A stretch of 64,000 nt of DNA from Chrysomallon squamiferum (taxonomy: Eukaryota; Animalia; Mollusca): NCBI GenBank assembly GCA_012295275.1, contig CM022677.1, positions 13,392,001 through 13,456,000 of the forward strand, given 5' to 3'. This document shows positions 9,447 to 34,414 of this stretch, piece after piece (position 1 is the stretch's first letter; each line of letters starts with the position of its first letter). The translations under genes and the position numbers were made by a program. The notes under the pieces are model-generated. The model ran no database searches. It was not told where the DNA came from and worked only from the letters and a program-made list of their open reading frames with translations.

Positions 9447-9477
<31 letters not shown>

Positions 9478-10554: not shown

Positions 10555-10591
<37 letters not shown>

Positions 10592-11341: not shown

Positions 11342-12137
11342 TTCTACTTATTGTGTTGTGCTTTCTATTATTAGTTAGTCTCATTTTCAGTGTGTGCATC
11401 CTCTGTTGAAATAGATTATTATTATTAACATTAATATCGGCGACGTCATATCTGTGTTGTATTCCTCTTTATTATTTTGCTCTTTTTATTAACTATTATT
11501 CTTACTTTCTTAGTGTGCACCCAATATTGTTACCTTCATATCTGCATTCTTCTTCATTTTACTGGTGTACTTCTCTTTATTCTCTTTTTATTAATAGTTA
11601 TTCTCACTTTATGTGTGCTCATCCTGTAGTAAGATAGATTATTCTTATTTGTATCAATGTTGCCGTCGTTGCCATGGTATCTGTGTTCTTCTTGATCGTA
11701 TTGGTGTATTCTGTTGTGCTTTCTCTTAATAGTTACTGTCGCTTTCTGTGAGGAATATATTACTATTAATGTCGCTGACGTTGCCATCACACCAATGTTA
11801 TTCTTAATGTTTTTGTGAATTCTTGTTTTTATTTTTCTTACTTGTGACAGGGATAATCCTGTCTCACAATATAGTATTATTCTTTATATCAGTGACGTAA
11901 CGGCATTGTTCATACTGTTATTGATGTCATCAGTTCTCATCCTGTCTCAAAATATATTATTAGTATTTCTATTAATGGCACCATTGTTTCTGTCATATCA
12001 GCATTCTGCTTGATGTTACATGCGTACTTCTATTTGTTCTGTTGTGTTTTCTGTTAATTGTTTTCTTTCAGTGTGCACATCCTATATGAAAATATATTAT
12101 TCTTATTTTTTTAGAATGTGTATCCTATATTAAAGTA

Positions 12138-12171
<34 letters not shown>

Positions 12172-15100
12172 GTTATTGTTATTGTTACTATTATTATTAT
12201 TATTATTATTATTATTGTTATTATTATTATTCTAAATCTTTCTTTCAGGATTGATTTATGGTGTTCTAGAGATCAGTGATCAAAAAGTGCAGGAGGCCCT
12301 GTTGAGGTTAACGTAATATCAATTTATTCAACAAGGTAATATGAAGTTATATTGGTTTAATTATCAAAAAAAAAAAAAAAAAAAAAAAAAAATGAAATTA
12401 TAATAGTAATTTTAATCATTATTTTGATCTCAGAGTTTTTACATTATTAAACAATGTTATATGATTAATTAAACATGCTAAACATCGTAAGTTTAAATCT
12501 TTGTAATAGTTTAAATTAATGATTCTGTATTTTATAATATCAGTGTCCATAGATGGTCCTTATATTGTATCAAGAAAAAACATTGAGTTAAATTGTTTTA
12601 TTTAGAAATCTGGAAATGTACACATATCTCAAGGTTTCTGTATATTTTGATAAAAAATTAAATTAAATAAAATAGCCCATATTCATCTCCTATTGAGAAA
12701 AACAGACAACACAATTCATCTGTGTGTGGACTACAGGTGGCTGAATGCTAAAACTAGGAAAGACTGCTTTCCACTACCTACAATAGAAGAGTCATTAGAT
12801 GCTTTGCACAGAGCAAATTGGTTCACTACACGGATATGGCCAGTGAATACAACCAAGTTGCAGTTGAGGATAAAACAAAGACAAAACTGCATTCATCACT
12901 CCAATGGGTTTGTTTGAATCAATCGTATGCTGTTTGGTTTATCAGAAGCACCAGCCACATTTTAAAGACTCATGCAGCATTGCTTTACAGAGCAGATATT
13001 TCAGTGTTCTGTTTTTTTATGTGTGCATAGATAAACTAGAAGAGGTATTAAACATTTTAAAACAGCATGGGCTCAAACTAAAACCAAGCAAACGCTCTTT
13101 CCTTAAGAAAGAAGTGGAATATCTAGGACGTGATGTCTAGAGATGGGGTAGTTACAGATCCAGACAAAATAAAGGCTGTTCTTGAATGGGAAGTTCCAAA
13201 GACACCAAAGTTTGCCAGTTACTTCAGATCATACATTAAAGGATTCTCAGTTACTGCTCGACCTTTGCATTCTTTGGTGAACAGGTTCTGAGATAAGAAA
13301 AATCAAGAATTGTTAAAGGGTGCTTGGTACAAGAGTTGTCAAAAGAGATACTTTAAAAGAGAAGTTAACTTCAGCTCCAATATCAGGAAACGCTGATTTC
13401 AGTGAACTTTTCAAGTTTTCAGGAAGTGGGAGCAGTACTGTCACAGGAGCAAAATGGGCAAAGTGAAGAAATTACATATGTTAGACAGAGCTTGAGACCC
13501 ACTGAGAGAAACATGAATAATAACAGTTCCAGGAAATTAGAGCTTGTCTGAAATGAGCTGTGACTGAAAAGATTGAAAATTATCTTCTCAAACATCAATT
13601 TACCATATATACAGACAACAATCCAGTAAGTCGTCTTGATAACACAAAACTACATGCAGTGGAATAAACATGGGGGTCTCAGCTGGCACAATTTGATTTT
13701 GATGTGAAATATCATTCAACACAATAAGAATGCTGATGGCCTATCCAGGAAGAAATTTCACAGAATGACATCTACTTCAGTGGAAGCTGCTTTAGAGATA
13801 CTGCTAGATACAGAAGTTACACAACCAATGAGACACGTTATAAAAGGTGGTGGAAGAAAAGTCACACAGTAAACAATTTAATGGAACAATTTAATGAAAC
13901 TATGGAAGCCACAACATCATCTCCCAGCTTTAGAAGAACTAGCAGTGATGCAGGCAAAAGACATGTTAATAAGGAGATTGCTGTATTACATGGCTATCAT
14001 GCAGAGCTGAGAGAAGATTAGAAGAATCAGGTTTCTTCATGCTAATCTGGCAATGGGACAGATTATTCCTTGAAAACAAAGCACTTTACAGAAAAGTAAA
14101 GGACCCAACTTGGCAAGTTTGCTGTTCATCTTATCTAGAAGAAATATCATCACATTCCTTCCTCTCTACAAACATAAATACAATTATTATTAGTAAATAC
14201 TGTCTTAGAATGACTTAGAAAATATCCTTTTGACCTGAAAAACAGAAATATTTGCAGATTGTGTTGAATGGTTTAATTATCTAAATCTATTGTGTTTTCT
14301 AGATTCAAGTATTTTCTGTCTGAAATGTTTAATTATGTGTGCACACATGGACAGGAAGACACATTTCACTTTCTTTTATAATGGAGCCAGAAACAGTCTG
14401 ATGTAAGCACTAATGTGATTTGATTCTGTGCCTACCCACACTTCATACACTGACTTACACATTGACTACAGAAAACACAGCAGTCAGTTTAATTCATAGT
14501 TTACAGTTTTCTCTCTAACTTTATTACAGTGATTACCACTGTGAAATAAAATACTTGATAACCAATTTGACTAGAAAATAAAATAAGGAAAGAAAATAAT
14601 TAGGAAAAGCAGCTAAAATTTTTTAATAAATCACGTTTCTCCTCGATATAATAGCTATTGAAACAGACCTATTATTTTACTAATTATTTATTTATTGTTA
14701 TTTTTATTAGATGTAAATTAACAGAATTTAACTTTAAACACTGTAAATGTTTAAAAAAAAAAGATCAAAAATTAAAACCTGATATCACATAATCCTAATT
14801 TTCATTTAGAATTTAACAATTTATAAAACTGTTTATTTCTTTAAAACATTATTCCAAAATCTGTAGAAATTAATGGTGGTTTAAGACCCAGCGCAGACAC
14901 AATACAAGATAAATTATTAATGGAGCTCAGTGTGGAATGGGAAACGGTAATGTTTCAAGGATAAAGTGAGCTCTGGGATCATTTCAGATTCTTATTTATT
15001 AAAACTAGTTGTAATTAGAACATTTATCAATTTAAATACTGATAAATTAAAAATTTAACAAACTATTAATCATATAAATATTAATCATGTATATTATAAG

Positions 15101-16221
15101 TTTTAATAATTCATGTACTTCTGTGTTATATTTACAGATGACTGACTGAACTTCCACTGCAGTCCATGTTGTCCACGAAGTGATCATGTCAGAATTCTTG
15201 CAGTTGCTTCCATATTGTCTGGGCAGAATATTCTCTACAGACCAAAGGTTTGAAACTGCTGGTTTTTATTGGTTTCAAAGATATAATTAAGCTAATATAA
15301 TTAAGAAAATAAGTAAAACAGAAAAGTTATTATTAACAAAAATCTTATATACAACATCCTATGTTTTGGAAATTAAAAAATAAATAAATAAAAAAGATAA
15401 AAGCAAAGTGAACTCTTTATTATTAAAATCCAAGAAAAAAAGACATCCAAAATATTATTTTGTTTATTTATGGTGAACAATCTTGTTAATTATAAAGTTT
15501 GACACAAAACTGAAGAAACTTGCTGATTATGAACACTAAACATTGTAGTACAATTCAGTGAAGAACAATCGCTTCTCCAGTTTGTGGTGTTAAAAGAAAT
15601 TTGTACAAACTCAGAAACTCAGATGAGTTCAAGTGTTTGAAATCAGATGCTGAGTATAATGGAAAGGTAATTCAGTTTACAACTAGACTTTATAAACTGT
15701 AAAATATAAATCATTTAATGCCATATGAGAATATTTTAATATTATTATTATAATTTTCTTTTTTTAAATAATGGTATCTGTAGATGCAAAGAAAAAGACA
15801 AAACGTGACATTGATACAGCAGTTGGGAGAAAAGGACTGTAATTAGAAAATGTATGTTCAAAAATTAACAGATAAATATTACTGATCTTACTTGTTGTCA
15901 ATTTTTATAAAATATATTAATTTATGTACTTAATTAAAAGTAAAATGGAAGTTACTGTTTTAAGAACGAAAATATATATATATATATATATACAATGAAA
16001 AATAGAGGTCCAACAAGACTGTTTAAATAAATATAATTAAACTTTATTTTATTTCAGTTAAATTAACTGTACTTATTATTGGTTGAAAACATTACTTCAG
16101 ATTCAAATGATAAAATATAAAATTATAGTGGGTCTTGTTAAAATGTTTGAATGTAATATTTTTTATTTCAGTCATCACAGAAAGCTATTTACAAGAACTG
16201 ATGTCCACTGAATCTAAATGA
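11342..16221. repeat. Right arm of ~4.9 kb inverted repeat; spacer 10279-11341
   Basis: Reverse complement of 5395-10278, with only scattered substitutions and homopolymer indels. Confidence 0.95.
12690..14150 (+). mobile_element. Degenerate Ty3/Gypsy pol fragment
   Basis: Same Gypsy RT motifs as 7470-8930, followed by an RNase H-like FTIYTDNNP segment; many stops and frameshifts. Confidence 0.85.
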
Positions 16222-16759: not shown

Positions 16760-17452
16760 TGACCTATTTAAAAAACAGAGTTGAACAGACTGGCTTTTGG
16801 CTTTTGGACCAAATGTACTTTAACACCCGAAGGTGCATAGTCACGTGACATAACGTCATCTCAAAATATTAAAAAAAAGTATATAGGGTGGGGGGAGTGA
16901 AAGACAAGACGTGATATATAGTCAACCTAACTCTTGTGATTTGTAAAAAAAACAAAGATCTTCATTACTGGCTTTTGGCTTTTTGACCAAAAGTACTTTT
17001 AACGCGAAGGTGCTTAGGCTTCGCCCGAAGGAGCATAAGTTAAAGTACATTTGGTCAAAAAGCCAAAAGCCAATCATGGTGAACTTTGTTTTTTTAACTT
17101 ATGATCCTTCGGGTTTTGGCTTCGCCCGAAGGAACATTATCACCTTCGGGTTAAAAGTACATTTGGTTAAAAAGCCAAAGGCCAATCATGGGGAACTTTG
17201 TTTTTTTTTTTACAATAACAAGAGTTTAGTTGAAATTGTAAAAAAAACAAATTTCCTCACTACATGGCTTTTTAGCTTTTTGGCTTTTTGACCATAATGT
17301 ACTTTTAACCCGAAGGTGATAACGTTTCTTCGGGCGTAGCCGGAACCCGAAGGATCATAATTTAAAAGTACATTATGGTCAAAAAGCCAAAAAGCTAAAA
17401 AGCCAGATCATGAGGAACTTTGTTTTTTTTACAATAACAAGAGTTAGGTTGT
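16760..17452. repeat. Cluster of complete and partial viral terminal hairpins (ITRs)
   Basis: Half arm ~16790-16835; variant hairpin ~16850-17095; flop half ~17095-17235; full flip hairpin ~17237-17452 (GGCTTTTT repeats, TGTACTTTTAA...TTAAAAGTACA stem). Confidence 0.85.
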
Positions 17453-17526
17453 AGAATCTATTATAGCTGATGTCGCTAATTCAACAGACGTATCAAACGC
17501 AAATTCTATTACAGATTCTTGTGGTT

Positions 17527-19223
17527 TTTTCCAGTGCAATATTCATCTCATCATCTGTTGGATCGAATCCGATAGTAAACAACTTTGGATGCATGAGATT
17601 ATATGCATTTTTGAGTACGTCACTCTTCTTTAAATCTTGAATGAAATAAAGTCTTGTCTTCATAATACTGATTTGACTTGTAGTCAAACCATCTCCAAAT
17701 CGATTATTTGAATTTATCATACAAATATTTGCTCGGCAATAGCATGGAGTGGTTCCCTTACGTTCACATGTAGCCTTACTACCACTGAGCAAATCTTTAT
17801 ATTTATCGATATTTGTCTGATTTATTGAAATTTCTTCGCCTAACACGATCTTTTTGTTTCCAAGCATTTGCCAAGGGAAATTGTCTTTCGCGATTTTTCC
17901 TGCACATGATAAACATTCAAACATGCTACTCGATATCATGGTCTTTCCAGAATCTGACTCTCCTTGTAAATATATGCCTTTTCCCTTTTCCTTTCAATAA
18001 TGCAACAATCAAACAATACAGCCATCTCTCTGGCAGATGTTGTTCAAAGCACCAACTATTGAATACTTTTAAACTGTCCTCTGGTGTCATGTAATGTTCA
18101 GTAGTATCATTTAAGTTCATAATTTGTTCAAATGCATTTTTATCCGATTGTTCATCTAAGAATTTTGATCTAGCCGCTTTAAATAGTTTTTCACCAGATG
18201 TATTTGCAACTGAATTACATAATGCCTTAAATTCGTTCAAACTACTGTCAAATTTACTAATCAACATGTTCAGTTTGTTAACTTCTGGATGTTTTATGAT
18301 CAAATTGTAGAAGAAATCCAACGTATCAGCTGACTTGTTGGTTAATAGATGTGAAGGAATATTGTCGTTCTTTGTATTACTTGTAGCAGTTTTATCATCT
18401 TCCATCATTGCATCTATAATTGTATTCTCTATCTTAGCCTCAGATGAAGTTGTTCCTGCACCGTGATTGATGGACGTATTCATAGTTGTTGGTTCTGATT
18501 TGACTTTAATTTCATCTTTTCTAATAGTTCCTTGATGGCAGACATCATGGACGTATCATTAGAGATATCTTTATTGTCAAAAAAGTCCATCAAAATGTTC
18601 ATAATATCATTTTCATTATCATGATATCGTTTGTCTATTTCATTCCAGATATGAAGCATTCGTTCGTCATTTGTACCAAGGTACATCTTCTCATTATCAT
18701 TCATCAGATATGACATATAATTTTCCAGACATGTATTTTGAGGTTCCTTCAGTTTTCCTATTTTGATGTATCCCTTCTCATTGAGTACCGCACGGTGTAA
18801 TCTTCTGTATTGCCTGTCCTGTGAGGGTGTTTTCATGTTATTCTTCCAAATTACATGAACATGAGATCCATACGTTGGAAAGGCTTTATCCATTTCACAG
18901 TCTTTTTGATGATAAACTATCAGTGATTTCCAGTTTATATTTCTTAGAAAGGATTTTAGCTCAGTTATCACTCTGTCCTGTCCTTTGGCTAAATATTGAT
19001 GCTGGGTGTTGCCCAATGGTCAACCGGTTTGTCTAAGATATCCTGTGGATCCATTTGATAGCTTTTTATAAAGCTTTTTACCTTGAGCATAGACGTAATT
19101 ACCTTCTTTGTCCTTCACTAGGCTTCTCGGAACTAAATATTTGGGATGCACCATATCATATAATGGATGTCCAACAATTACGCTGTAATAACTGTCTTCT
19201 GGTAATTCAATGTACCTATCCAT
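17527..19223 (-). pseudogene. NS1: NS1/Rep, unit 1 (frameshifted, C-terminus truncated)
   Basis: GSHVHVIW HUH motif and the SF3 segment VLGEEI..KDLLSG..MINSN..KTRLY, split over ORFs 19020-19223, 18480-19016, 17926-18483 and 17493-17939. Confidence 0.9.
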
Positions 19224-19436
19224 TTTTTTATCAATATAGTTATAATATGTTGAAACAATTCTTTTGTAATGAATAACAAACGAATGAAAAATTAAACTGA
19301 AGCGTCTTTATTTATAACAAATGTAACATGACGTCATATATATGACGTAATAATGTGTACGTGACATTAATAACGTTAACATTTAAAAATACTTTTAACT
19401 GTATTAATATGCAACTATAAGAACTATTTACATCAG

Positions 19437-21538
19437 TTATACTGGATATGACCAATCGGTAGTACTACCAGTAATGGGTACAGATCTATCACCATATGTT
19501 CCATGAATAGGCCAAATGAATCTACGTCTATTTTTACGTTTAAACCAATTATCGCATATAGGTGCAGCAATTCGCATTTTCCATTGTTTTTCAATTCTCT
19601 CTTTATACTGTTTACCAGTTTCATCTAAAAACTGATCTTGTTCAGTATGTTTTACATTGTCTTTATTTCCTGTTGGTATAGTGTCATTAGCTTTGAAAAA
19701 TAAACCCTGCATTGGACCAGAACATCCACCTAAACCTATCGGTATATATTTAGGACACATACCAGTTCTTACAACAAATTCAACTTCGCTGTAATACGTT
19801 ATTTGAATATTAGCATGATAGTTAAAGAATAATGTTGATCCGCTAGTAGTTTTACATCTGGATATATTCCAATTAAAAATATGGGAGGTATATTACACTG
19901 AAAGGTCCTCCTATTTGATCCATCTATACATGTATTAACATTAGGATCATCAGCATCATTATAAGATACACCAGATTTAGCTATCTTGGTACCACCATCA
20001 TCTACCATACATGGAGCACCTAGATCTCTAGATGCTTTATGTTGGTAACATCCTTTATAATTAACAGACCTATATTGGTGATTGAAATAGGTAGTAACTG
20101 CTGTTGCCATAGGATGTGTTGAAAAATTAGTTACTGTAATTTCATGCGTTGGCCAAACTTCTAAATTATCTTTATTTTCATTGCTTTTTATATTTTGCAT
20201 TGATATTTATCTTTTCTAATATTTCCTGTCATTTGAGTAAAATTTAAAGTGTGACTACTTTCACCTGGAAATATAACTAATGGTGAATCTTTACATGTAT
20301 AATCTAATCCAAATCCACCTGCACTGATAACTGTTTCTCTATAACCATCATGTAATTAGGTGTTTCAGCAGTGTAATTAATATTATCACTGTTTTGGGTC
20401 CATGCATTACTTAATAATTGCATACCTATGTCACTAGGTAAATACATTTTACGATCTGGTTGAACTGGTATAGCTCTATGAGATGTATTATCCATACACT
20501 CTTCATCGCTAAATCGATTGTTATGACAAATTTAAATGTCTATCTGGTAAACCGTAATCATTGTAAATATCTGTAAACGTCCAAACACGTGCATTTGGTG
20601 GTGCCATTACAGGTACTTCGTTTGGATCTGATTTATTATTATTTAGTACATGTATTATCATATTATTTATATTAAATCCAAATTTTTTAATTTTATAACC
20701 AACAAATTCATCTGGTAAATTCCAATCATCAGGTTTCGTACTTGTTTGCTTGTACCAATAAGGTATGATATGTCCTCCATGATTAAATACAAATTCACAT
20801 ACATTAGGATCACCTATTGCTTTTTTTCCGGTTAGTATTATCTGTACCATTATCTAATATTTTCATTGTAGCTTTTCTAGTTTTAGTAAAATTTATCACA
20901 CTAGTAAATGTTCTTTTGAATGTCTTTTTAATAGTTATATATCTAGGATTAGCTCCTTTAGTGGTTCCTCCAAATCCTTGATACAAAAAGTTGTTACCTG
21001 TAGCTGAAGCCATCGGAGCACCTTCAACAGCTTCGCTTCCACCTGTATCGGTAACCTCTTCATTCATTATTGAATCAGGCTCCATTACAGATTCTTGTGG
21101 TTGAAGGTATGTTCCTTTAGAATTAGATTGTTCTAGTACATCTTGTGATATTCTATCAGATAATTGATTGTTGTTAGGCACTTTAGAACTTGATCCACCT
21201 GCTGGTTCATTTGTTTGTCTCTTCATAGTTTGTTTTGATTCTGATCTTGGTCTATCTTGTATTTGTTCGTCTTCTGGGTATAAAGGTGTATTGAAAGGAT
21301 CCTCTTCGTCTGAATTCTCAGGATTGTAATGGTTTTCCCGAAGATCTTGTATTGCCTTATAGAAACTTTGATTAGGAATTTGTAAATTAGGATACTGACG
21401 TCGTATTTGTAACCACCTATCTTGGCGCTGATCAACCGGCACATTTAAATCTGCTAAGATAGATAATGCCTTAGCTTTAGCTATTGCCCAGAGTCGTGTC
21501 ACTTCTTTCTTGTTTAGCAAACGTTTTCCTTTATTCAT
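19437..21538 (-). pseudogene. VP: Capsid protein VP, unit 1 (several frameshifts and small deletions)
   Basis: ORFs 20810-21538, 20521-20850, 20304-20495, 19799-20200 and 19437-19760 are collinear with the unit-2 VP. Confidence 0.88.
21223..21444 (-). CDS. Overlapping +1 ORF inside the VP N-terminal region, unit 1 (73 aa)
   Basis: MCRLISAKIGGYKYDV..YKFLIKVSIRQYKIFGKTITILRI; homologs are present in all four units. Confidence 0.6.
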   Translation of the reverse strand: MCRLISAKIGGYKYDVSILIYKFLIKVSIRQYKIFGKTITILRIQTKRILSIHLYTQKTNKYKIDQDQNQNKL

Positions 21539-21900
21539 GAAATCGGACTGTTTCTATATATGTAATTTACGTATTCGTCCTCTTCTTGTCCTAAATCTTC
21601 TCGTTCAGATTTAGAAACGTTGTTATCCAATTGTTTATCACCTGAATTCACTAAATCACCAAACTGATTTAATGCTTCTTGTATTTGATTTTTAGTATAT
21701 GTAGAAATACCTTAAATTGACGATTCTACAATAGATTGTCCAATAGCTGTTGCTGGTTCCAAATATATACTATCAGCTCCCAATATTTCAGTAATACCAG
21801 GTACTGTAGATTCTAGTACAGCAGATGTAGCTAATTCCACTGAAGCATCAAAAGCGTATTCGATAATTTCAGTAGCTATAATTCCTAATGCTGTGAATAT
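21535..21900 (-). pseudogene. ORF X, unit 1 (ATG>ATA, internal stop)
   Basis: Collinear with 27196-27561 (FTALGIIATEII...). Confidence 0.8.
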
Positions 21901-21992
21901 CCTATCAAAGCAATAGCTTGATTATAAATGAATTATATTTTAAAAATCAAGATTAAATATAAAATATCACGTGATATTACGGAAATTACGTA

Positions 21993-22433
21993 ATACTCTT
22001 CAAAATAAAAAAGGATGGGGGGGTGAATAATGTAATGACCTGATAGATTTCAACCTAACTCTTGTTATCTGATAAAAAAACAAAGTTCCTCACTACATGG
22101 CTTTTTAGCTTTTTGGCTTTTTGACCATAATGTACTTTTAACCCGAAGGTGATAACGTTCCTTCGGGCGTAGCCAGAACCCGAAGGATCATAAGTTAAAA
22201 GTACATTATGGTCAAAAAGCCAAAAAGCTAAAAAGCCAGATCATGAGGAACTTTGTTTTTTTTACAATAACAAGAGTTACGGGCTAAAAGTACATTATGG
22301 TCAAAAAGCCAAAAAGCTAAAAAGCCAGATCATGAGGAACTTTTTTTTTTTTACAATAACAAGAGTTAGGTTGAAATCTATCAGGTCATTTTATTCTTCA
22401 CCACCCACCCTATTTTTTAATTTTGAAGAGTAT
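21993..22433. repeat. Junction ITR between units 1 and 2 (flip), with a duplicated right arm at ~22281-22360
   Basis: Palindrome ATACTCTTCAAAAT...ATTTTGAAGAGTAT around the core CCCGAAGGTGATAACGTTCCTTCGGGCGTAGCCAGAACCCGAAGG. Confidence 0.92.
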
Positions 22434-22676
22434 GACGTCATATACTATATTGACGTCATATCATATATTAACGTCATTTCCTTTATATTTTAGCAGACGA
22501 TATTTTTATTAATAATATAGTTTATTACATTAATATAATATTTTTAATAAACAAATAACAAGAATAATTAATGTTTAATTATATTTTATTTACAAAAATT
22601 AACAATAATGTAATACTTATTTTATTATAACATTTTAATAATATTTTAAACAGTAAATAAATGTTTATTTAATTAA

Positions 22677-24840
22677 CTAATTTTCCGATTTATATTTTTT
22701 GAAAATGTCCATTTGAGTTTCCTGTATTGTTTCGGTAAACTGATCATAAAATGACGGAGTTTCAGGTATGTAGAACTTGTATTTCTTCTGTTCAGGTTCT
22801 TCAGGTTCGGATCCAACAGTTATGTATTGTCCGTCCATCTGTTCGTCCAACTTTCGTTTTGTTCCTTTTTGCTCTTGTTTTTCTACATTACTTTCCTGTT
22901 GGCTGGTTATGAACAAATCTTGAGACGGATTATATGTTTCTACTTCCTCTTTTTCTTCATCTTCACTTGATATTTCAATATACTCTATTTTATCTTCTAC
23001 TTGATTGCTTATCATTGGATTATTTGATGCAATGATCGATTGACTGTCATCGAAATTGTCTCTGAAGTAACTATTACGTCCTTCGAAAGTGTTGTCTTCA
23101 ACGTTATTGTTATGTTTCATAGAGAAATATTCCCTGTCATTTTCTAATGCAATTGTCATTTCGTCCTCTGTCGGTTCATATCCTATAGTGAATAATTTAG
23201 GATGAATCAAATTGTAAGCATGTTTAAGAACATCACTTTTTTCAAGTCCTGAAGAAAGTAAAGTCTAGTCTTCATAATGCTTATTTGGCTTGTTGTTAAT
23301 CCATCTCCAAAACGATTATTCGAATTAATCATGCAAAGATTAGCTCTGCAGTAACAAGGAGTAGTGCCTTTTCTTTCGCACGTAGCTTTACTGCCACTGA
23401 GAAAATCCATGTATTTGTCTATATTTGTCTGATTAATTGATATTTCTTCACCCAAAATGATTCTTTTGTTCCCTAACATCTGCCAAGGGAAATTGTCCTT
23501 AGCTATTTTCCCTGCACAACTTAAACACTCAAACATACTGCTTGAGATCATAGTCTTACCAGAGTCAGACTCCCCTTGCAGATATACACCCACTTTCTTT
23601 TTACCTTTACCTTTTAGTAAAGCTACTATCAAACAATATAACCATCTTTCGGGAATGTGTTGTTCTACACACCAGCTGTTAAATATTTTAAGACTGTCTT
23701 CGGGTGTCATATCATTGAATGTTCTATATCATTGTTCAAATCGGTTATTTGATCATACGCATTTTTATCGGATTGTTCTTCCAGAAATTTAGATCTGGCT
23801 GCTTTAAATAACTTCTCTCCTGAAGTATTAGCAACAGCATTGCATATCGCTTTGAATTCATTGGAGGTACTGTCATATTTGCTAATAAGCATGTTAAGCT
23901 TATTAACTTCCGGGTTTTTTACAATTAGCTTGTAAAAAAGTCAAACGTGTCAGCTGATTTATTGGTTATCAAGTGAGATGGAACGGTTTCATCCATATTA
24001 TTATTGTCTGTTGTTTTATTATCTTCCATCATTATTTCTAACACATGTTCTTCTATTTTTGCATCGGCTGAGGTTGTACCTGTTCCATGTTTAATTGTCT
24101 TGTTGCTAGTTGTTGGCTGTGGTGTAGCTTTAACATCATCTTTTCGAACAGGTTCCTTAATGGCAGGTACAACAGAATCGTTATTTGCAACATCTTGATT
24201 GTCAAAGAAGTCTAACAATATGTTCATTAGTTCATCCTCATTACTTCTGATACATTTATCTGTATCATTCCATAATTTCAGCATGTGGTCGTCGTTTGTA
24301 CCGAGATACATTTTTTCTTTGTCATTCATTAGGTAAGTCATGTAGTTCTCCAATGATATAGTTTGAGGTTCTTTGATCTTTCTGATTTTAATGTATCCTT
24401 TTTCATTCAATATAGCTCTGTGCAATCTCCTGTATATACGGTCCTGTGATGGCGTTTTCATATTATTTTTCCAAATAACATGTACATGTGATCCATATGT
24501 AGGATAATTTTTATCCAATGTACAGTCTTTTTGATGATAAACTACAAGATTTTTCCAATTTTTGTTCCTTAAGAAGGCTTTCAATTCAGTTATGACGCGA
24601 TCTTGACCTTTAGACAGGAACTCGTAACTTGGTGTCGCCCAGTGATCTACTGTCTTATCCAAAATATCTTCTTGTGGGTCCATTTGATAACTCTTGATGT
24701 AATTTTTTCCGTGTGCGTAAACATACTTTCCATCTTTATCTTTTACTAAACTTCTTGGAACGAGAAACTTTGGATGAACCATCTCGTAGTTTGTATGTCC
24801 AATAATAGTTATCTTCTGCGAGTTCCATATGTCGATCCAT
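22677..24840 (-). pseudogene. NS1: NS1/Rep, unit 2: full length (~720 codons) but frameshifted
   Basis: ATG at 24840 (MDRHMEL, cf. MDRYIEL and MDRYVET in other units); HUH TYGSHVHVIWK; Walker A GESDSGKT; Walker B ILGEEI; motif C MINSN; Arg finger KTRLY. Confidence 0.92.
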
Positions 24841-24914
24841 TGCTTGTTTTGTTTTAATATATATATTTTTTTAAATTCTGTTATAAGTGATAACAAACGA
24901 ATGAATATTTTAAA

Positions 24915-25040
24915 ATCAACGTCTTTATTTATAACATTTTGAACATGAGGTCATTCAGAAGACGTAACCAATCGTACGTGACAAAAATAACGTTAACATT
25001 TGGAAAGACTTTTAACTGTATTAATACGCCAACTAAGATA
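24915..25040 (-). promoter_or_regulatory. Putative internal NS1 promoter / VP polyadenylation region (homologs at ~19300-19420 and ~32260-32310)
   Basis: Minus-strand TTATAAATAAAGACG ~80 bp upstream of the NS1 ATG in units 1 and 2. ACGT motifs upstream. Block ACTTTTAACTGTATT conserved in three units. Confidence 0.5.
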
Positions 25041-25060
25041 TTAATAATATTGATAATTTT

Positions 25061-25091
<31 letters not shown>

Positions 25092-25097
<6 letters not shown>

Positions 25098-27199
25098 GGA
25101 TATGACCAATCTGTACTGTTTCCGGTAATCTGTACACTTCTATCACCATATGTACCATGCACAGGCCATACTAATCGACGTCTAGCTTTACGTTTATTCC
25201 AATTGTCCCATATAGTGGCATACACTCTCATTTTCCATTGTTTTTGAATTCTCTATTTATATTGTTTAGCACTTTCATCTAAAAACTGATCTTGTTCAGT
25301 ATGTTTTACATTGTCTTTATTTCCTGTTGGTACAGTGTCGTTAGCTTTAAATATAAGGCCTTGCATAGGACCAGAACATCCACCTAATCCTATAGGTATA
25401 TATTTCGGACACATACCGGTTCTGACTAGAAATTCAACCTCACTATAAAAAGTTATTTGTATATTAGCATGATAGTTAAAGAATAACGTGGCCCCGTTAG
25501 TCGTTTTTTCAACATCTGGATATAGACCAATTAAGAATATCGGAGGTCTATTACACTGGAACGTCCTTCGATGTGATCCATCCATACATGTATTAACGTT
25601 CGGATCATCTGCATCGTTGGACGCTACACCAGCTTTAGATATTTTGGTACCTCCGTCATCTACCATAGATGGAGCACCTAGATCTTTAGATGCTTTGTTC
25701 AGGTAACATCCTTTATAATTTACATTTCTATATTGGTGATTAAAATATGTAGTAATTGCAGTTGCCATAGGATGTGTTGATACATTAGTTACCGTAATTT
25801 CATGTGTACGCCACACTTCTAAATTGTCTTTATTTTCATTGCTGCATTGATATCTATCTTTTCTAATATTTCCTGTCATTTGAGTAAAATTTAAAGTCTG
25901 ACTGCTTTTTCCCGGAAATATAACCAATGGAGAATCTTTACAGGTATAATCTAATCCAAACCCACCTGCACTAATAACTGTTTCTCTATATCCATCGTGT
26001 TTTTTCATATCGTATATGTAATTAGGTGTTTCGGCAGTATAGAGCACACCCTCACCGTTCCAAGCACTGTTTAACAGTTGCATACCTATGTCACTTGGCA
26101 AATATAATTTACGATCTGGTTGAACCGGTGTGCTTCTTTGAGATGTCTTGTCCATAAATTCTTCGTCTTTGAATAGATTATTATGTGACAAGTTTAAATT
26201 TCTTTCTGGTAATCCATAATCATTATAAATATCTGTAAACGTCCAAACTCGTGCGTTTGGAGGTGCCATTACTGGTACTTCGTTTGGATCTGATTTAGTA
26301 TTATTTAAAACGTGTATTATCAAATTATTTATATTAAATCCAAACTTTTTGATCTTATACCCAACAAATTCATCTGGTAAATTCCAATCATCAGGTTTCG
26401 TACTGGCTTGTTTGTACCAATATGGTATAATGTGTCCTCCATGATTAAATACCAATTCACAAACATTAGGATCACCTATTGCTTTTTTCCAATTAGTGTT
26501 ATTTGTACCATTATCTAATATTTTCATTTTAGCTTTTCTAGTTTTAGTAAAATTTATAGCACTAGTAAATGTCCGTTTGAATGTCTTTTTAATAGTTATA
26601 TATCTAGGATTAGCTCCTTTAGTGGTTCCTCCGAATCCTTGATACAAAACGTTGTTACCTGTAGCTGAAGCCATGGGAGCACCTTCAACAGCTTCGCTTC
26701 CCCCTGTATCGGTAACTTCTTCATTCATAATAGAATCAGGTTCCATTACAGACTCTTGTGGTTGAAGGTATGTTCCTTTAGAATTAGTTTGTTCTAGTAC
26801 ATCTTGTGATATTCTATTAGATAATTGATTGTTGTTAGGCATTTTAGAACTGGAACCTCCTGCTGGTTCATTCGTTTGTCGCTTCATTGCTTGTTTTGTT
26901 TCGGTTGTTTTTGATCCTTGTCTTGACTCTTCTAATGGGTATAGAGGCATATTAAAAGGGTCCTCTTCGTCCGAATCCTCAATATGGTTATTGTTTTCCC
27001 GAAGACCTTGTATTGCCGTATAGAAATTTTGATTAGGAATTTGTAAATTTGGATATTGACGTCGTATTTGTAGCCACCTGTTTTGGCGCTGATCCACCGG
27101 CACATTTAATTCTGATAAGATAGCAAATGCTTTAGCTTTAGCTATTGCCCAAAGTCTAGTCACTTCTTTCTTGTTTAACACACGTTTTCCTTTATTCAT
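25092..27199 (-). pseudogene. VP: Capsid protein VP, unit 2: 648 aa open, then one in-frame TAG (25253-25255) before a ~50-aa tail
   Basis: Gly-rich GFGGTTKG then TFKRTF. IPYWYKQASTKPDDW..YKIKKFGFNINNL resembles the parvoviral TPW..SPxDW..FKxFNI core. PPIFLIG and QITFYSEVEF occur late. The tail ORF from 25231 is in frame. No PLA2 (YLGPG/HDxxY) motif. Confidence 0.88.
26932..27105 (-). CDS. Overlapping +1 ORF inside the VP N-terminal region, unit 2 (57 aa, below ORF-track cutoff)
   Basis: Manual translation: MCRWISAKTGGYKYDVNIQIYKFLIKISIRQYKVFGKTITILRIRTKRTLLICLYTH*. Confidence 0.6.
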   Translation of the reverse strand: MCRWISAKTGGYKYDVNIQIYKFLIKISIRQYKVFGKTITILRIRTKRTLLICLYTH

Positions 27200-27561
27200 G
27201 AAATCGGACTGGTTATACGCATATAATTCACGTATTCGTCCTCTTCTTGTTCTAATTCGTCTCTCTCAGATGGAGAAACGTTATTATCCAATTTTTTGTC
27301 GTCTGGTTGCAAGAAATCACCGAATTGATGTATGGCTTCTTCTATTTGACTTTTAGTATATGTAGCAATACCTTCAACAGAAGATTCAACAATACTTTGT
27401 CCAATAGCTGTAGCTGGCTCTAAATATATACTATCTGCTCCAACAATTTCAGCAATAGCTGGTACTGTAGAATCTATTATAGCTGATGTCGCTAATTCAA
27501 TAGATGTATCAAAAGCAAATTCTATTATTTCAGTAGCTATAATTGCCAAAGCTGTAAACAT
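27196..27561 (-). CDS. ORF X, unit 2: intact 121-aa acidic protein with hydrophobic N-terminus, function unknown
   Basis: Conserved in all four units; its stop codon overlaps the VP start as ATGA. Confidence 0.8.
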   Translation of the reverse strand: MFTALAIIATEIIEFAFDTSIELATSAIIDSTVPAIAEIVGADSIYLEPATAIGQSIVESSVEGIATYTKSQIEEAIHQFGDFLQPDDKKLDNNVSPSERDELEQEEDEYVNYMRITSPIS

Positions 27562-27564
27562 CCT

Positions 27565-27655
27565 AACACATCATCAACAAACATAAAAATGAAAAATATA
27601 TACATATAGTTATATTATATATTATAAATCACGTGATATTACGGATATGACGTCA
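27565..27655 (-). promoter_or_regulatory. Putative ITR-proximal promoter for ORF X/VP
   Basis: Minus strand: TGACGTCA (CRE/ATF), then ATCACGTGAT (E-box), then TTTATAATATATAA. The E-box also occurs at ~21966 and ~30596. Confidence 0.55.
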
Positions 27656-28003
27656 TACTCTTCAAAATAAAAAAAATAGGGTGGGGGGTGAATAATAAAA
27701 TTACCTGATAGATTTCAACCTAACTCTTGTTATTGTAAAAAAAACAAAGTTCCTCATGATCTGGCTTTTTAGTTTTGGGGCTTTTTGACCATAACGTACT
27801 TTTAACTTATGATCCTTCGGGTTCTGGCTTCGCCCGAAGGAACGTTATCACATTCGGGCTAAAAGTGCATTATGGTCAAAAAGCCAAAAAGCTAAAAAGC
27901 CAGATCATGAGGAACTTTTTTTTTTTACAATAACAAGAGTTATGTTAGAATCTATCAGGTCATGTTTTACTAACCCCCCATTATTTATTTTGAAGAGACG
28001 TCA
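27648..28003. repeat. Junction ITR between units 2 and 3 (flop)
   Basis: Long palindrome; core TTATGATCCTTCGGGTTCTGGCTTCGCCCGAAGGAACGTTATCAC is essentially the reverse complement of the flip core. Confidence 0.92.
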
Positions 28004-28213
28004 TTTCCTGTTTATAACGTTATTTCCTATATGACGTCATAGCTTTGACGTCATATCCGTTTACAGTTTAGCAGACGATAAGTAAAATTCTACATTAATT
28101 AATTAATAAATAACAAACAATATTTACTTCAAATTAAATTATTTATTTAATTAACGTTTTAAATAAAATATTTAACAATATTTGTATAATTATTATACAA
28201 TACGTTATATTGT

Positions 28214-29872
28214 TCAATCTTCCTTTTTATATTTATTGAAAATGTTCATTTGGGTTTTTGGAATAGTTTCTGAAAACATAGCTTCAAACGGCTGACTTTC
28301 TGGAATGTAAAATTTGAATTTTTTAACTGTTGGATCTGATGGTTCGTATCCGGTTGTTATATAGTATGGATCTAACTCGTCTGTTGTGTTGTCATCATCA
28401 ACGTCATCAGGTTGGTTAATTTCTTCCCTTTTTCTTTTAATTCCTTTGTTGTCAGAATTAAATGTTTCCTCATTCTGTGACTTTACAAATAAATCTTGTG
28501 ACGGATTATAATAATCCTGTTCTGATATTTCTATGTATTCTATTTTGTTATCTTCTGTATCTTTAGTTGTGCTCATCATTGGATCTAAATCTGTTGTCAA
28601 TAATGTTTGGCTGTCATCAAAATTGTCATGAAAATAACTGAGTTTTCCATCTAACGTGTTGTCATTGTTACTGTTATTGTTTTTGTTGACAAAATAGTCT
28701 CTGTCATTTTCTAACGCGATGTTTATTTCATCATCTGTAGGTTCTCTACCTACAGTGAAAAGTTTTGGATGTAAAAGGTTGTAGCAATTCTTTAAAATTT
28801 CACTTCTTTTCAGATTTTGAATTAAATACAGTCTGGTCTTCATTATACTTATTTGTGAATTTGTTAAACCGTCTCCAAATTTGTTGTTGGAATTTAATAT
28901 GTTAGCACGACATATGTTAGCACGACAGTAACAAGGCGTGGTACCCTTGCGTTCACAAGTTGCCTTGCTACCACTAAGAAGGTCTTTATATTTGTCTATG
29001 TTCGTTTGCGTTATAGATATTTCTTCCCCTAGTACAACTTTTTTACCTCCTAACATTTGCCATGGGAAGTTATCTTTAGCGATTTTCCCCGCGCATTGTA
29101 AACATTCGAACATTGAGCTTGTAACCATGGTTTTTCCACTGTCTGATTCTCCCTGGAAATACATTCCTACCTTTTTCTTTCCTTTACCTTTTAACAAAGC
29201 TACTATTAAACAAAACAACCATCTTTCTTCTATTTCCTGTTCACGACACCAGCTGTTGAAAATTTTAAGACTGTCATCCGGTGACATATAATGGTCTATA
29301 TTATCGTTAAGAATTTGTATCTGTTCGAAAGCATTTTTTTCAGATTGTTCCTCAAGATATTTTGAACGTGCCGCCTTAAATAATTTGTCACCGGAAGTGT
29401 TAGCAACTGAATTGCACAACGCTTTAAACTCATTGGATGACGGTTCGAATTTGCTTATAAGCATGTTTAATTTGTTTACTTCGGGATATTTTGTTATCAG
29501 TTGGTAAAAAAAAATCCAATGTTTCTGCCGATTTATTTGTCAAGAGATGACATGGAATATTTCTATTTTCGTTCACTGTTGTATTACTTTCAATTTTGTT
29601 GTCTGATGATGTCATCATCGCATCTATAATGTCATGTTTATTTTGACGTCACGAGCACTTGTTCCTCCTTTAGATACAACATCGGACTTAGTAATCTTTG
29701 AATTAACGACATTGTCTGTCTTCACTGCTTCATCTTTTCGTATTGGTTCTCTTATCCTAGATGTATTATAGTTCATATCCATTTTCTGATTGTTGTCTGT
29801 GTTGTCAAAAAAATCGTTAAGTATGTTCATGATGTCGGCATCGTTGTCTTGCATTTTTTTATCCACGTCATT
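28214..29872 (-). pseudogene. NS1: NS1, unit 3: helicase and C-terminus open (416 aa, 28214-29464); HUH domain deleted
   Basis: GESDSGKT, VLGEEI and NSN motifs; 15-nt duplication (RANICRANI); upstream frameshifts. Confidence 0.9.
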
Positions 29873-30161
29873 TGTGTCTGTTGTTTGTTGGTTGTCGTCG
29901 TCGTATAAAGGGGTCCCGAAAGGGTCGTCTTCGTCCGAATTTTCAACAGCGTTAGTCTTGCCCAATATTTTGAATTGCCTGATAGAAATCGTAATTAGGA
30001 ACTTGTAAAGTTCGATACTGACGTCTGATTCGTAACCACCTTTCTTGTCTTTCTGAATAGGGGACATCTAAATCAGCTAATTTTGCAAATGCTCTGGATT
30101 TTGCTATAGATCAGAGTCTTGTTACTTCCTTTTTGTTCAACAGTCTCTTTCCTTTATCCAT
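29873..30161 (-). pseudogene. VP: VP N-terminal remnant, unit 3, fused to NS1 by a large internal deletion
   Basis: MDKGKRLLNKKEVTRL*, and ..NSDEDDPFGTPLY running directly into NS1-like NDVDKKMQDNDADIMNILNDFFD. Confidence 0.8.
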
Positions 30162-30526
30162 GAAATCGGACTGTTTCTATAAACATATGAAACGTTTTCG
30201 TCCTCTTCTTCTTGTAACTGCTGACGTTCAGCTTCAGAAACGTAAGTGTCTATATCCTTTCCACTATCAGCCGTAATTAACTTACCAACCTGATTTAATG
30301 CTTCTTGTATCTGATTTTTGGTATAAGTTGAAGTACCTTCAACAGACGATTCTACAATAGATTGTCCGATAGCTGTAGCTGGTTCAAGTAGTGCACTATC
30401 AGTACCTATTATCTCTGCAATAGCTGGTGCTGTAGATTCTAATATTGCTGATGTAGCTAGTTCCACAGAATCATCAAATGCGTACTCAATTAATTCAGTA
30501 GCTATGATCCCTAAAGCTGTGAACAT
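30158..30526 (-). CDS. ORF X, unit 3 (stop TGA>TGG, reads through to 30137)
   Basis: MFTALGIIATELIEYAFDDSVELATSA... Confidence 0.75.
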
Positions 30527-30645
30527 CGTATGATGACAATCATCAGTGGAATAAAATAATTTATACAATGAAAGAATATATATATAATAAAATATATCAC
30601 GTGATATGTCACGTGACACATATATGTAAGTATTCAAACAATAAC

Positions 30646-30911
30646 ATGACCTGATGGATTCTAACCTAACTCTTGTTTACCGTTAAAAAAACAAAGTTCC
30701 TCATGATCTGGCTTTTTGGCTTTTTGGCTTTTTGACCATAATGTACTTTTAGCCCGAATGTGATAACGTTCCTTCGGGCGTAGCCAGAAACCGAAGGATC
30801 ATAAGTTAAACGTACATTATGGTCAAAAAGCCAAAAAGCCAAAAAGCCAGATCATGAGGAACTTTGTTTTTTAACAGTAAACAAGAGTTAGGTTGAAATC
30901 TATCAAGTCAT
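30646..30911. repeat. Junction ITR between units 3 and 4 (flip)
   Basis: Palindrome ATGACCTGATGGATT...AATCTATCAAGTCAT with (GGCTTTTT)3 / (AAAAAGCC)3. Confidence 0.92.
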
Positions 30912-30977
30912 TTTATTGTTCACCCTCCACCCTATTTTTTTTTTAATTTGAAGAGTATGACGTCATATACGATATTG

Positions 30978-32189
30978 ACCATCGTTCTGGAATGCATTGT
31001 TCTACACACCAGCTGTTGAACACCTTTAAACTGTCATCTGGTGTCATGTAATTATCGATGTTATCCGATAATGACAGAATCTGGTCGTATGCGTTCTTCT
31101 CTGCTTCCTCTTCCATGTATTTCGATCTAGCAGCCTTGAATAGCTTTTCTTCTGATGTATTAGCTACTGCATTACATATAGCTTTAAACTCGTTACTGTT
31201 GCTGTCATATTTGCTGATTAACAAATTCAGTTTGTTCACGTCTGAATGTTTAACTATTAGTTTATAAAAGAAGTCAGATGTATCAGCTGATTTGTTGGTT
31301 ATCAGATGAGATGGAACTAATTCATCCTGTTTGTTAGTAGTATTACATACAGCAATATTGTTTTCGCCTTGAGGTATAGTTTCTAACATCACTTCCTCCA
31401 TCTTAGCTGCTGCAGAAGATGTTCCTTTACCGTGATTCACGACAGGAGATGATGTTGTAGTCTTATTGAAATTGACGTCGTCCTTTCTCACAGCTCTTTG
31501 ATATCGGAAATAATTGTACTCTTATCTTTTATTGGTTGATCGTCAAAGAAATCTAACAGAACGTTCATTATGTCTTCTTCCTCCTCTTTAGAACGTTTTT
31601 CTGTTTCGTTCCAAATGTGTAGCATCTTTTCGTCGTTTGTTCCTAAATACATCTTCTCCGAATCGTTAATCAAATACATCATGTAGTTTTCTACAGATGT
31701 ACATTGTGGATCCTTCAATTTACGAATCTTGATGTATCCCTTTTCATTTAAAATTGCACGAATGAGTCGTCTGTATTGTCTATCTTGTGATGGGGTCTTC
31801 ATGTTAGTTTTCCAAATAATGTGAACGTGAGAACCATAAGTAGGATAATTACTTTCTACTTGACAATCTTTTTGATGATATACTAATAGTATCTTCCAGT
31901 TCTTGTTTCGTATAAAGGATTTCAATTCTGTCACGACTCTGTCCTGTCCTTTTGCCAGATATTCATAATTGGGCGTGGCCCAATGATCCACAGTCTCGTC
32001 TAATATGTCTTGCTGATCCATCTGGTAGCTTTTAATATAATTCTTGCCTGGTGCGTAAACGTATTTACCTTCTTTGTCTTTAGCTAGAGATCTGGGTACC
32101 AAAAATTTCGGGTGTACCATGTCGTAACCAGTGTGTCCTATAACCACACTATAATAACTATTTCCAACGGTTTCAACATATCTATCCAT
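30978..32189 (-). pseudogene. NS1: NS1, unit 4: HUH domain present, helicase deleted
   Basis: TYGSHVHIIWK; homology ends at IPERW and joins the ITR flank. Confidence 0.88.
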
Positions 32190-32340
32190 TATTAATCCTG
32201 ATGACAATCAAAATTAAATTTATATGTTTGTTTAAAACATTCAATTTCATGTGACTAAATGAACGTAAATATTAACAAAGACTTTTAACTGTATTCTTAC
32301 GCAACTATGAGAAACTATTTTTATTTATTTATTTCTGTTT

Positions 32341-34012
32341 TTATATTGGATAAGACCAATCTGTACTGTCTCCTGTAATAGGTACACTTCTATCTCCATA
32401 AGCACCGTGTACTGGCCAGATAAATCGTCGTCTGGCTTTACGTTTATTCCAATTGTCCCATATAGGGGCATATATTCTCATTTTCCATGTTTTTTCGATT
32501 CGATCTTTATATTGTTTTACAGTTTCATCTAAGAATTGATCTTGTTCTGTATGTTTCACATTGTCTTTATTTCCTACAGGTGTAGTATCGTTCAATTTAA
32601 AAATGAGTCCTGCCATATTACCTGACGGACATCCACCCAAACCTATAGGTATGTATTTTGGACACATTGCCGTTCTGACTAAAAACTCCACCTCGCTATA
32701 ATAAGTTATTTGTATGTTAGCATGGTAATTAAAGAATAATGTAGCTCCGTTGCTAGTTTTCTCTACATCAGGGTATAAACCTATTAGGAACATAGGAGGT
32801 CTATTGCATTGATACGTACGACGGTGTTTAACGTCCATGCACATTTGGATTATCTAAATCATTGCTAGATATACCGCTTTTACATAGTTTGGTGCTAGCA
32901 TCATCTGCCATCGATGGTGCTCCTAAATCTTTACCAGCTTTATTTTGATAACAAGCTGAATAGTGTACATTCCTGTACTGATGGTTAAAATAGGTGGTGA
33001 TAGCAGTCCATACATTCTTCATCTTTTAATCGATTATTATGAGATAGGTCCAAATGTTTATCAGGTAATCCATAATCATTATAAATATCTGTAAATGTCC
33101 AAACTCGTGCATTTGGAGGTGCCATTACTGGTACTTCGTTTGGATCTGATTTAGTATTATTTGAAACACGTATTATCATATTATTTATATTAAATCCGAA
33201 TTTTTTAATTTTATAGCCTACAACCTCATCAGGTAAATTCCAATCGTCTGCCTTCGTGCTAGCTGCTTTATACCAATAAGGTATAATGTGACCACCATGA
33301 TTGAATGTAAATTCACATACATTTAGATCACCTATTGCATTTTTCCATGCTGAAGCATCTGTTGCATTATCTATAACTGACATACTAGCTTTTCTTTGTT
33401 TAGATAAATTAATCTCACTAGTGAATGTTCGTTTAAATGATTAGCTCCAGACGTTGTACCTCCAAATCTTTGGTATAAAACGTTATTTCCTGTAGCAGAG
33501 GCCATAGGAGCACCTTCACTTCCACCTGTATCAGTTACCTCTTCGTTCATGATAGAATCAGGTTCCATTACGGACTCTTGAGGTTGAACATACGTTCCTT
33601 TGGAATTATATTGATCCAATACATCTTGTGATATCCTCGTAGATAGTTGATTATTATTAGGAACTTTGGAGCTAGATCCTCCTCCAGGTTCGATGTTTTG
33701 TCGTTTCATGCCTTGTTGTTCTGATGCTTTTAATGCTTGTTCGTCTTCTGGGTATATAGGCGTATTAAAAGGGTCCTCTTCGTCTTGATCTTCAATATGG
33801 TTATATTCGTTCCGAATATTTTGTATTGCCGAATAGAAATCTTGATTTGGAATCTGTAAATTTGGATATTGACGTCGAATTTGTAACCGCCTGTTTTGGC
33901 GCTGATCCACCGGCACATTTATCTCTGATAATGTATCAAATGCTTTAGCTTTAGCTATAGCCCAAAGTCTGGTAACGTCCTTCTTGTTTAATATACGTTT
34001 CCCTTTATTCAT
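32341..34012 (-). pseudogene. VP: Capsid VP, unit 4 (internal deletions near 33000 and 33435)
   Basis: ORFs 33371-34012, 32985-33383, 32828-33022 and 32341-32844 are collinear with the unit-2 VP. Confidence 0.88.
33730..33918 (-). CDS. Overlapping +1 ORF inside VP, unit 4 (62 aa)
   Basis: MCRWISAKTGGYKFDVNIQIYRFQIKISIRQYKIFGTNITILKI. Confidence 0.6.
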   Translation of the reverse strand: MCRWISAKTGGYKFDVNIQIYRFQIKISIRQYKIFGTNITILKIKTKRTLLIRLYTQKTNKH

Positions 34013-34376
34013 GAAATTGGACTAGTAGTACGCATATATGATACGTATTCGTCCTCTTCAGTTTCCAATTCCTCTCGTTCTTCAGATTAAACGTTATTAT
34101 CTACTGCTGTATCTTTTTTGAATTCACAAAATCAGTGAATTGATCCAAAGCGTCCTTTATTTGAGTTTTAGTATAGCTAGCAGTGCTTTCTACAGAAGAT
34201 TCAACTATACTTTGTCCAATAGCAGTCGCTTGAAGTAGATATACACTGTCAGCTCCGACAATTTCGGCTATAGCTGGAGCGGTAGAATCTATAATAGCTG
34301 ATGTAGCAAGTTCCACTGATGTATCAAACGCAAATTCAATGATTTCAGTAGCAATTATACCCAAAGCTGTGAACAT
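34009..34376 (-). pseudogene. ORF X, unit 4 (3' part disrupted)
   Basis: MFTALGIIATEIIEFAFDTSVELATSA...; premature stop at 34101. Confidence 0.8.
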
Positions 34377-34414
34377 CCTAATTCAACAACTGATAATAAT
34401 CAAATGAACATTAT

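Follow-up and report, generated by a model that had tools for sequence, protein, structure and literature searches.

We analyzed a 64,000-nt stretch of the genome of the mollusc Chrysomallon squamiferum (NCBI GenBank assembly GCA_012295275.1, contig CM022677.1, positions 13,392,001 to 13,456,000 of the forward strand; hereafter, the window), in which an earlier reading of the letters alone, here called the original prediction, had proposed a parvovirus-like lineage with its capsid gene placed before its replicase gene. At 16.8 to 34.4 kb, the window holds four minus-strand units parted by large palindromes. We are fairly confident that they form an endogenous head-to-tail array of broken parvovirus-type genomes with the capsid gene (VP) before NS1, their likely source being several related viruses, members of an unclassified lineage of linear genomes with this order between terminal hairpins. 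The order itself is very likely viral. What the data show is the gene order, both hairpin orientations, the fold of the capsid model, the SF3 helicase, and purifying selection between units. As judged from sequence, the virus appears to have been homotelomeric and monosense, to carry those features of the family that can be tested, and to fit no classified genus that we found.

Four broken units with the capsid gene first

Read along the minus strand, unit 2 consists of a hairpin, open reading frame (ORF) X of 121 amino acids (aa), VP of 648 aa, a gap of ∼250 nt, NS1, and a second hairpin. Its hairpin centers are spaced 5.66 kb apart, in agreement with the ∼5.6 kb between inverted terminal repeats (ITRs) first proposed and inside the 4- to 6-kb size of Parvoviridae. 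Unit 1 has the same gene order and 79% nucleotide identity to unit 2 over 4.86 kb; unit 4 has it as well, with a deletion in VP, half of NS1 only, and no upstream hairpin. What remains of unit 3 is ORF X, a stub of VP, and NS1's 3′ portion; the VP-NS1 gap was lost in its deletion, so that the claim of one order in all units stands for units 1, 2, and 4 and, as to order only, for unit 3.

Other expectations needed correction. All four units are broken by frameshifts or deletions, and unit 2, from which a near-complete genome was to be reconstructed, is not close to intact, having at least five frame breaks (at least four in NS1 and one near the VP 3′ end). Nor is the layout as regular as assumed, given the missing upstream hairpin of unit 4 and the NS1 genes of units 1 and 4, which are cut at the 3′ end. 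The features of the array, in window coordinates, are as follows.

16770–17461: left-end cluster J0, a pair of terminal hairpins, whole or rearranged, together with partial arms (minus core at 17099, plus core at 17318)
17450–17511, minus: ORF X fragment of 62 nt between unit 1 NS1 and the hairpin, 95% identical to 27466–27527
17527–19223, minus: unit 1 NS1, frameshifted, without its 3′ end
19224–19439, minus: unit 1 VP-NS1 gap, with ACGT-core motifs and TATAAAT (19310), no hairpin; likely NS1 promoter by its motifs
19440–21538, minus: unit 1 VP, with several frameshifts
21535–21900, minus: unit 1 ORF X, lacking its start codon; 81% identical to its unit 2 counterpart in nucleotides
21960–22470: junction hairpin J1, plus-orientation core, one arm with an 89-nt duplication
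22677–24840, minus: unit 2 NS1, with HxH nuclease motif, Walker A GESDSGKT, and Walker B ILGEE; at least four frame breaks
24841–25096, minus: unit 2 VP-NS1 gap, with A31 tract, ACGT-core motifs, and TATAAAT (24927) followed by TCATTC; no hairpin
25097–27199, minus: unit 2 VP, ATG at 27199, open to 25253 (648 codons), final ∼50 codons in another frame
27196–27561, minus: unit 2 ORF X, 121 aa, acidic, with an apolar N-terminal half; its stop overlaps the VP start (ATGA)
27626–28060: junction hairpin J2 (palindrome at ∼27626–28025), core in the opposite orientation, TGACGTCA motifs at its flanks
28214–29900, minus: unit 3 NS1, middle and 3′ part, with a 441-codon open frame that includes the helicase
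29900–30529, minus: unit 3 ORF X and VP 5′ stub, fused to NS1 through the internal deletion
30637–30971: junction hairpin J3, plus-orientation core
30979–32189, minus: unit 4 NS1, 5′ half, ending before the helicase
32190–32343, minus: unit 4 VP-NS1 gap; AATAAA motifs are present, as is TATAAAT at 32218, and there is no hairpin
32344–34012, minus: unit 4 VP, with frameshifts and an internal deletion
34010–34379, minus: unit 4 ORF X, with a host repeat immediately upstream (from 34382) and no hairpin

Hairpins rather than the VP-NS1 gap look like the genome ends

Where the genome ends lie determines how the order is read. All four junction cores tested folded strongly, with z-scores of −18 to −23, while in the three units that retain the VP-NS1 gap we found no hairpin in it (z-scores −1.2, 0.7, and 0.3; 40 shuffles for each sequence). 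The hairpins, not the gap, thus look like the termini, and termini within the gap were rejected; the contrast is in line with the argument that the ITRs fix the ends and that circular permutation does not explain the order. The hairpins have arms of 120 to 200 nt around an asymmetric core, which lies in plus orientation at 17318, 22151, and 30762 and in minus orientation at 17099 and 27841 (three plus, two minus). Two core orientations are the product of hairpin transfer at parvovirus ends. Between junctions, the hairpins are 94 to 98% identical. The two flanks of a junction show the same inner repeat, which makes a homotelomeric genome likely. The array thus carries the terminal palindromic hairpins typical of Parvoviridae, here in integrated form only.

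Short motifs recur at matching places. The motif TGACGTCA occurs in eight copies in the array, six of them beside hairpins, and in none in the 46 kb outside it. TATAAAT is present in all three VP-NS1 gaps, and ORF X stop and VP start overlap as ATGA in three of the four units. Two local irregularities were also seen: one J1 arm has an 89-nt tandem duplication (22196–22368), and at the VP end of unit 2 there is a 31-nt A tract on the minus strand (25063–25093), where unit 4 has repeated AATAAA. The tract may reflect slippage or be the remnant of a polyadenylated message.

The units diverged as different viruses under selection

To compare the units, we made 19 pairwise codon comparisons of stop-free pieces. 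The ratio of nonsynonymous to synonymous substitution rates (dN/dS) was 0.05 to 0.27 in all eight VP and all three ORF X comparisons; seven of the eight NS1 pairs were saturated at synonymous sites, the eighth giving 0.20. NS1 pieces were 57 to 93% identical between units, mostly below the 85% species line quoted in the literature. By these comparisons of dN/dS and synonymous saturation, the units, originally treated as copies of one genome, are different viruses. Purifying selection acted as they diverged, and NS1 is saturated at synonymous sites; the gene order is therefore older than their decay and was kept while selection acted on the genes. That several genomes under selection show the reversed order between hairpin ends also makes an assembly artifact unlikely.

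It is very unlikely, in our view, that an ordinary NS-then-VP parvovirus was rearranged at integration and then amplified in tandem, the order being an accident of the locus. An array with many deletions and odd joins might suggest such a history, as might a sea slug relative, described below, that shows NS1 then VP. However, neutral duplication cannot yield such dN/dS values or saturated NS1 synonymous sites, the gap keeps a conserved TATA motif and shows no trace of a hairpin, and, going by the available text of PMC9001828, there is a capsid-first precedent outside host genomes.

Divergence was uneven along the genome. Between units 1 and 2, nucleotide identity is 98% in the hairpin, 88% in VP, and 76 to 79% in NS1; among relatives in ENA (P0001–P0027), full or long VP copies are 90 to 100% identical (all taken from one 90% cluster) and distinct NS1 copies 76 to 91%. 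NS1 is thus more divergent than VP both in the window array and in the ENA copies, the reverse of the family norm as stated in the accessible part of PMC9896142. Recombination exchanging NS1 halves is our guess at the cause.

VP is predicted to be a parvoviral jelly-roll capsid protein

By sequence, VP matched nothing in Pfam or PDB, either singly or as a 34-member profile. The identification of the 648-aa protein as a capsid had been staked beforehand on structure prediction, which returned a parvoviral jelly-roll. In the model, folded with 33 relatives (34 rows; pLDDT 64, pTM 0.56), the jelly-roll core spans residues ∼199 to 592 and is preceded by ∼195 residues. The best Foldseek match in PDB was the capsid of Syngnathus chapparvovirus (E 3.5e-9), and all matches listed were parvoviral. 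Against the Bombyx densovirus 1 capsid, the model scored Z 15.4 (rmsd 3.9, 265 residues aligned), tied with human parvovirus 4, chapparvovirus, and adeno-associated virus (AAV), such that VP is about equidistant from all of them. On the strength of this model, VP is a parvoviral jelly-roll capsid protein.

A PLA2 domain in VP1 is usual, though not universal, in Parvovirinae and Densovirinae. Unlike these, the window VP has none, and neither VP nor ORF X of the window matched PF08398. In the capsid family scanned, the domain was found in a single member, a distantly related 984-aa Logan protein (P0059) with an N-terminal parvoviral PLA2 (PF08398, E 4.5e-11).

With an E cut-off of 0.001, the full profile search with VP returned 53 cluster representatives, of which 29 scored ≤1e-30. 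Logan clusters made up 17 of the 20 representatives examined; in 7 of these 17, the longest contig measured 7.1 to 7.6 kb, and in none was it longer. In a quick tree of 38 rows, from which shorter fragments were excluded, the window VP and its ENA relatives formed a long, fully supported branch. A more distant third VP fragment (P0028) lies on a 560-kb contig.

NS1 is of parvovirus type, and ORF X matches no family

NS1, of ∼720 codons, matched Parvo_NS1 (PF01057) at E 1-2e-7, exceeding the cut-off, and its HxH, Walker A, and Walker B motifs are kept. At the N terminus, where Parvoviridae have an HUH endonuclease domain, HxH and a downstream Tyr are conserved in the alignment, and the atlas neighbors have parvoviral nuclease families; the PDB list covered the helicase part only. 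For this part, a model of the intact relative P0025 (pLDDT 58) scored Z 15 to AAV Rep and B19 NS1, Z 12.5 to papillomavirus E1, and Z 8.8 to circovirus Rep. NS1 is an SF3 helicase of parvovirus type.

This ranking bears on another reading of the locus, namely, integrated copies of a circular, CRESS-like genome with one large palindromic origin and a parvoviral capsid. Head-to-tail units with a single palindrome per junction would fit integrated circles. We nonetheless hold such a genome to be highly improbable: the arms of 120 to 200 nt and the asymmetric core in two orientations speak against it, the modeled helicase is nearer to AAV and B19 than to circovirus Rep, and end-joined linear genomes give the same junction, for which the available text of PMC8982415 provides an AAV precedent.

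In a fold search of predicted viral structures, the best NS1 match was an unclassified 1,093-aa Parvoviridae protein (E 4e-42, 24%), followed by one at 5e-22, whereas named classified viruses reached at most 15% in structural alignments and no named classified NS1 was among the sequence matches. The genus line quoted in the literature is NS1 identity of at least 35 to 40% over 80%, plus SF3 monophyly. Apart from the NS1 pieces, we detected no overlapping NS2-type frame of at least 50 aa.

ORF X had no family match and no credible PDB match (best E 0.023), and a complex prediction with the VP core, for which alignments were not used, yielded no answer (score 0.00). A suggested likeness to the N termini of polyomavirus minor capsid proteins found no support in Pfam.

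A reversed-order lineage noted before in two genomes

In classified monosense parvoviruses, the NS cassette usually lies upstream of VP. The array has in common with classified Parvoviridae an SF3 helicase with nuclease motifs, a jelly-roll capsid, hairpin ends, and a size of 4 to 6 kb; it departs from them in its reversed gene order, in an NS1 at no more than 15% in structural alignments, and in a VP without sequence match in Pfam or PDB. Classified Parvoviridae comprise six subfamilies, according to the accessible part of PMC13426907.

The statement that no classified genus has this order held insofar as we found no classified relative, but the order had already been printed for two unclassified genomes. 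In the part of their paper available to us (PMC9001828), Shan et al. 2022 describe MT138329 (7,244 nt) and MT138334 (7,497 nt), from bird swabs, as having the structural ORF upstream of the nonstructural ORF, together with a further ORF that reportedly contains a transglutaminase-like domain. Like them, going by that description, the array units place the capsid upstream of NS and have an additional ORF; unlike these genomes of more than 7 kb, the array genome is 5.7 kb, with an NS1 of ∼720 codons and a 121-aa extra ORF lacking a domain match. The 7.1- to 7.6-kb Logan contigs match both published sizes. The array units are likely members of the unclassified reversed-order lineage noted in these swab genomes, and the candidate new lineage is better called poorly described than unseen, MT138329 and MT138334 being probable relatives.

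A protein link points the same way. QKE54994.1 (734 aa) belongs to the VP family, with 29% identity to the window VP (E 2.4e-45), and probably comes from MT138329. This assignment is drawn from accession order: QKE54986.1 and MT138323 are the best matches of the same genome in one paper, QKE54992 is a bar-headed goose parvovirus in another, and these pairings, with the order of the supplementary table, place the next QKE numbers at MT138329. The literature searched, which included few subscription journals and no figures, neither follows up the two genomes nor describes this clade; within it, their accessions and provisional genus names occurred only in PMC9001828.

Two other systems invite comparison. 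The megaparvovirus lineage SwaBA-MePV-1 has, in the text of PMC13426907 that could be consulted, the order PLA2 ORF, an ORF of no assigned function, NS1, and VP, with a VP of 504 to 577 aa that has no disordered N terminus. From that account, both it and the array are unclassified and likely homotelomeric, with extra upstream ORFs and a chapparvovirus-like capsid core, and both have whole-genome endogenous copies pointing to the host. Membership in that lineage is ruled out on the same account by its NS1-then-VP order and by its VP, which lacks the ∼195-residue precore stretch. In the segmented densovirus of Acheta domesticus, NS and VP cassettes lie on two segments and are separable and rearrangeable (PMC10267136, as far as accessible); the array units, unlike this virus as described there, hold both cassettes with no hairpin between them. 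A bipartite virus was rejected.

Several points weigh against the capsid-first reading. An annotated host gene of the sea slug Plakobranchus ocellatus (PoB_004494800; P0093) consists of NS1 fused to a VP fragment of this lineage. The fragment, 31% identical to relative P0007 (E 3e-23) and in a separate VP clade of the 38-row tree, is part of an endogenous copy, and its NS1-then-VP arrangement suggests the usual order in one branch, which that branch may keep, though an array could yield the same fusion. In addition, no free virus of the clade and no relative with a readable gene order were seen; promoters and binding sites are motif readings; the capsid tree was quick, with its deep branches unresolved; and the tie to the published capsid-first genomes depends on accession order.

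Related copies in public reads and other assemblies

Words of unit 2 were found in 9 of 11 public runs, reaching at least half in five runs from three studies. In four of the 11 runs (X1, X2, X4, and X6), one of which may be the assembly's own sample, short-read contigs were placed on the window, some near identical to units 2 and 3. One contig of a unit-1-like copy bridges the NS1 5′ end to the VP 3′ end (run X2 record 9, 19001–19538), and others bridge the unit 3 hairpin arm to the NS1 3′ part (X1 record 7, X4 record 19). One deep contig of X4 skips 409 nt of NS1.

Contigs 2 to 6% different from units 1 and 4 were deeper than those of units 2 and 3 (222 to 300 versus 50 to 99 in X1, 73 to 120 versus 13 to 18 in X2, and 1,176 to 1,757 versus 88 to 211 in X4), which indicates that related copies exist in larger numbers somewhere, whether integrated or not; summed depth does not equal copy number. 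The ratio of unit 1/4 to unit 2/3 depth differs among these three DNA runs. Transcription of the array was not apparent in RNA run X6, where its depth (0 to 11, versus 13 to 38 on neighboring host repeats) is no more than DNA carry-over.

ENA contigs of 8.4, 60.9, 297, and 452 kb each carry several NS1 and VP copies, some of full length, and probably represent similar arrays in another animal assembly. Together with the deep unit 1/4 relatives in X1, X2, and X4 and the 94 to 98% identity of hairpins between junctions, these contigs raise the prospect of a virus-derived mobile element that multiplied in the host genome as NS1 worked on its hairpins, the units being its copies; the order with the capsid first would remain real, but selection would have acted on a resident element and not on free viruses captured time and again. 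We consider this unlikely, in view of four units that are all broken, a capsid conserved under selection, and relatives on virus-sized contigs.

No relative with flanking DNA was found among candidates from viral contigs (0 of 5, 0 of 158, and 0 of 16) or metagenomes (0 of 401). A second metagenome set gave 2 matches in 185, one a bacterial false match (L002) and the other a VP-family fragment on a 1-kb contig (L001) that adjoins bacterial-looking sequence and is probably chimeric. From genome make-up and the Plakobranchus relative, the host of the lineage is likely an invertebrate; an Rfam search gave no match by which to narrow it.

How the virus and the array might have worked

We envisage a homotelomeric virus in which NS1-driven rolling-hairpin replication would give the two core orientations, with AAAAAGCY stem repeats as putative NS1 binding sites. 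A two-gene ORF X/VP message would be driven by a promoter that motifs predict beside the upstream hairpin; given the overlap of ORF X stop and VP start, VP might be read from it by leaky scanning or reinitiation. A second predicted promoter, in the gap, would drive NS1. With separate promoters, gene order would matter little. ORF X could be a minor structural or entry protein replacing the missing PLA2, which is a guess. Growth of the array is likely to have come about as end-joined genomes inserted, time after time, into a hairpin already present, with a single hairpin left at each junction.

What the locus adds is a compact form of 5.7 kb in which both ends are present, a host anchor through endogenous copies, a capsid family of 53 clusters, and distinct viruses arrayed at a single site. 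NS before VP is treated as the standard monosense parvovirus layout, and the printed exception that we found is, in the accessible text, a passing remark on two metagenomic contigs. The present locus links the reversed-order lineage with the germ line of an animal. Taxonomists gain from it a defined clade in which subfamily rank can be tested, and it is a natural case in which to ask how the cassettes of parvoviruses move and how different viruses come to form arrays at one site. More speculatively, and with the odds somewhat against it, there may be a large subfamily-level clade of capsid-first monosense invertebrate parvoviruses (at least 53 capsid clusters, 5.7 to 7.5 kb), in which each integrated hairpin would receive the next incoming virus, so that hosts gather successive relatives at a single locus as an ordered archive, with NS1 modules exchanged faster than capsids.

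Sequence surrounding the array

The window background is rich in AT and of animal type; it contains microsatellites, remnants of reverse transcriptase (PF00078; 8480–8863 and 45583–46476), and a RING-finger fragment (PF00097, E 2.8e-6; 4201–4935) with a repeated basic peptide ahead of it. The repeat that starts at 34382, adjoining unit 4, is of very high copy number. On the other side, a giant palindrome (5395–16221) with 5.4-kb arms that are 98 to 100% identical begins exactly where a 200-N gap (5195–5394) ends and stops ∼550 nt before the array; it is likely a contig-end assembly artifact, possibly a real inverted duplication.

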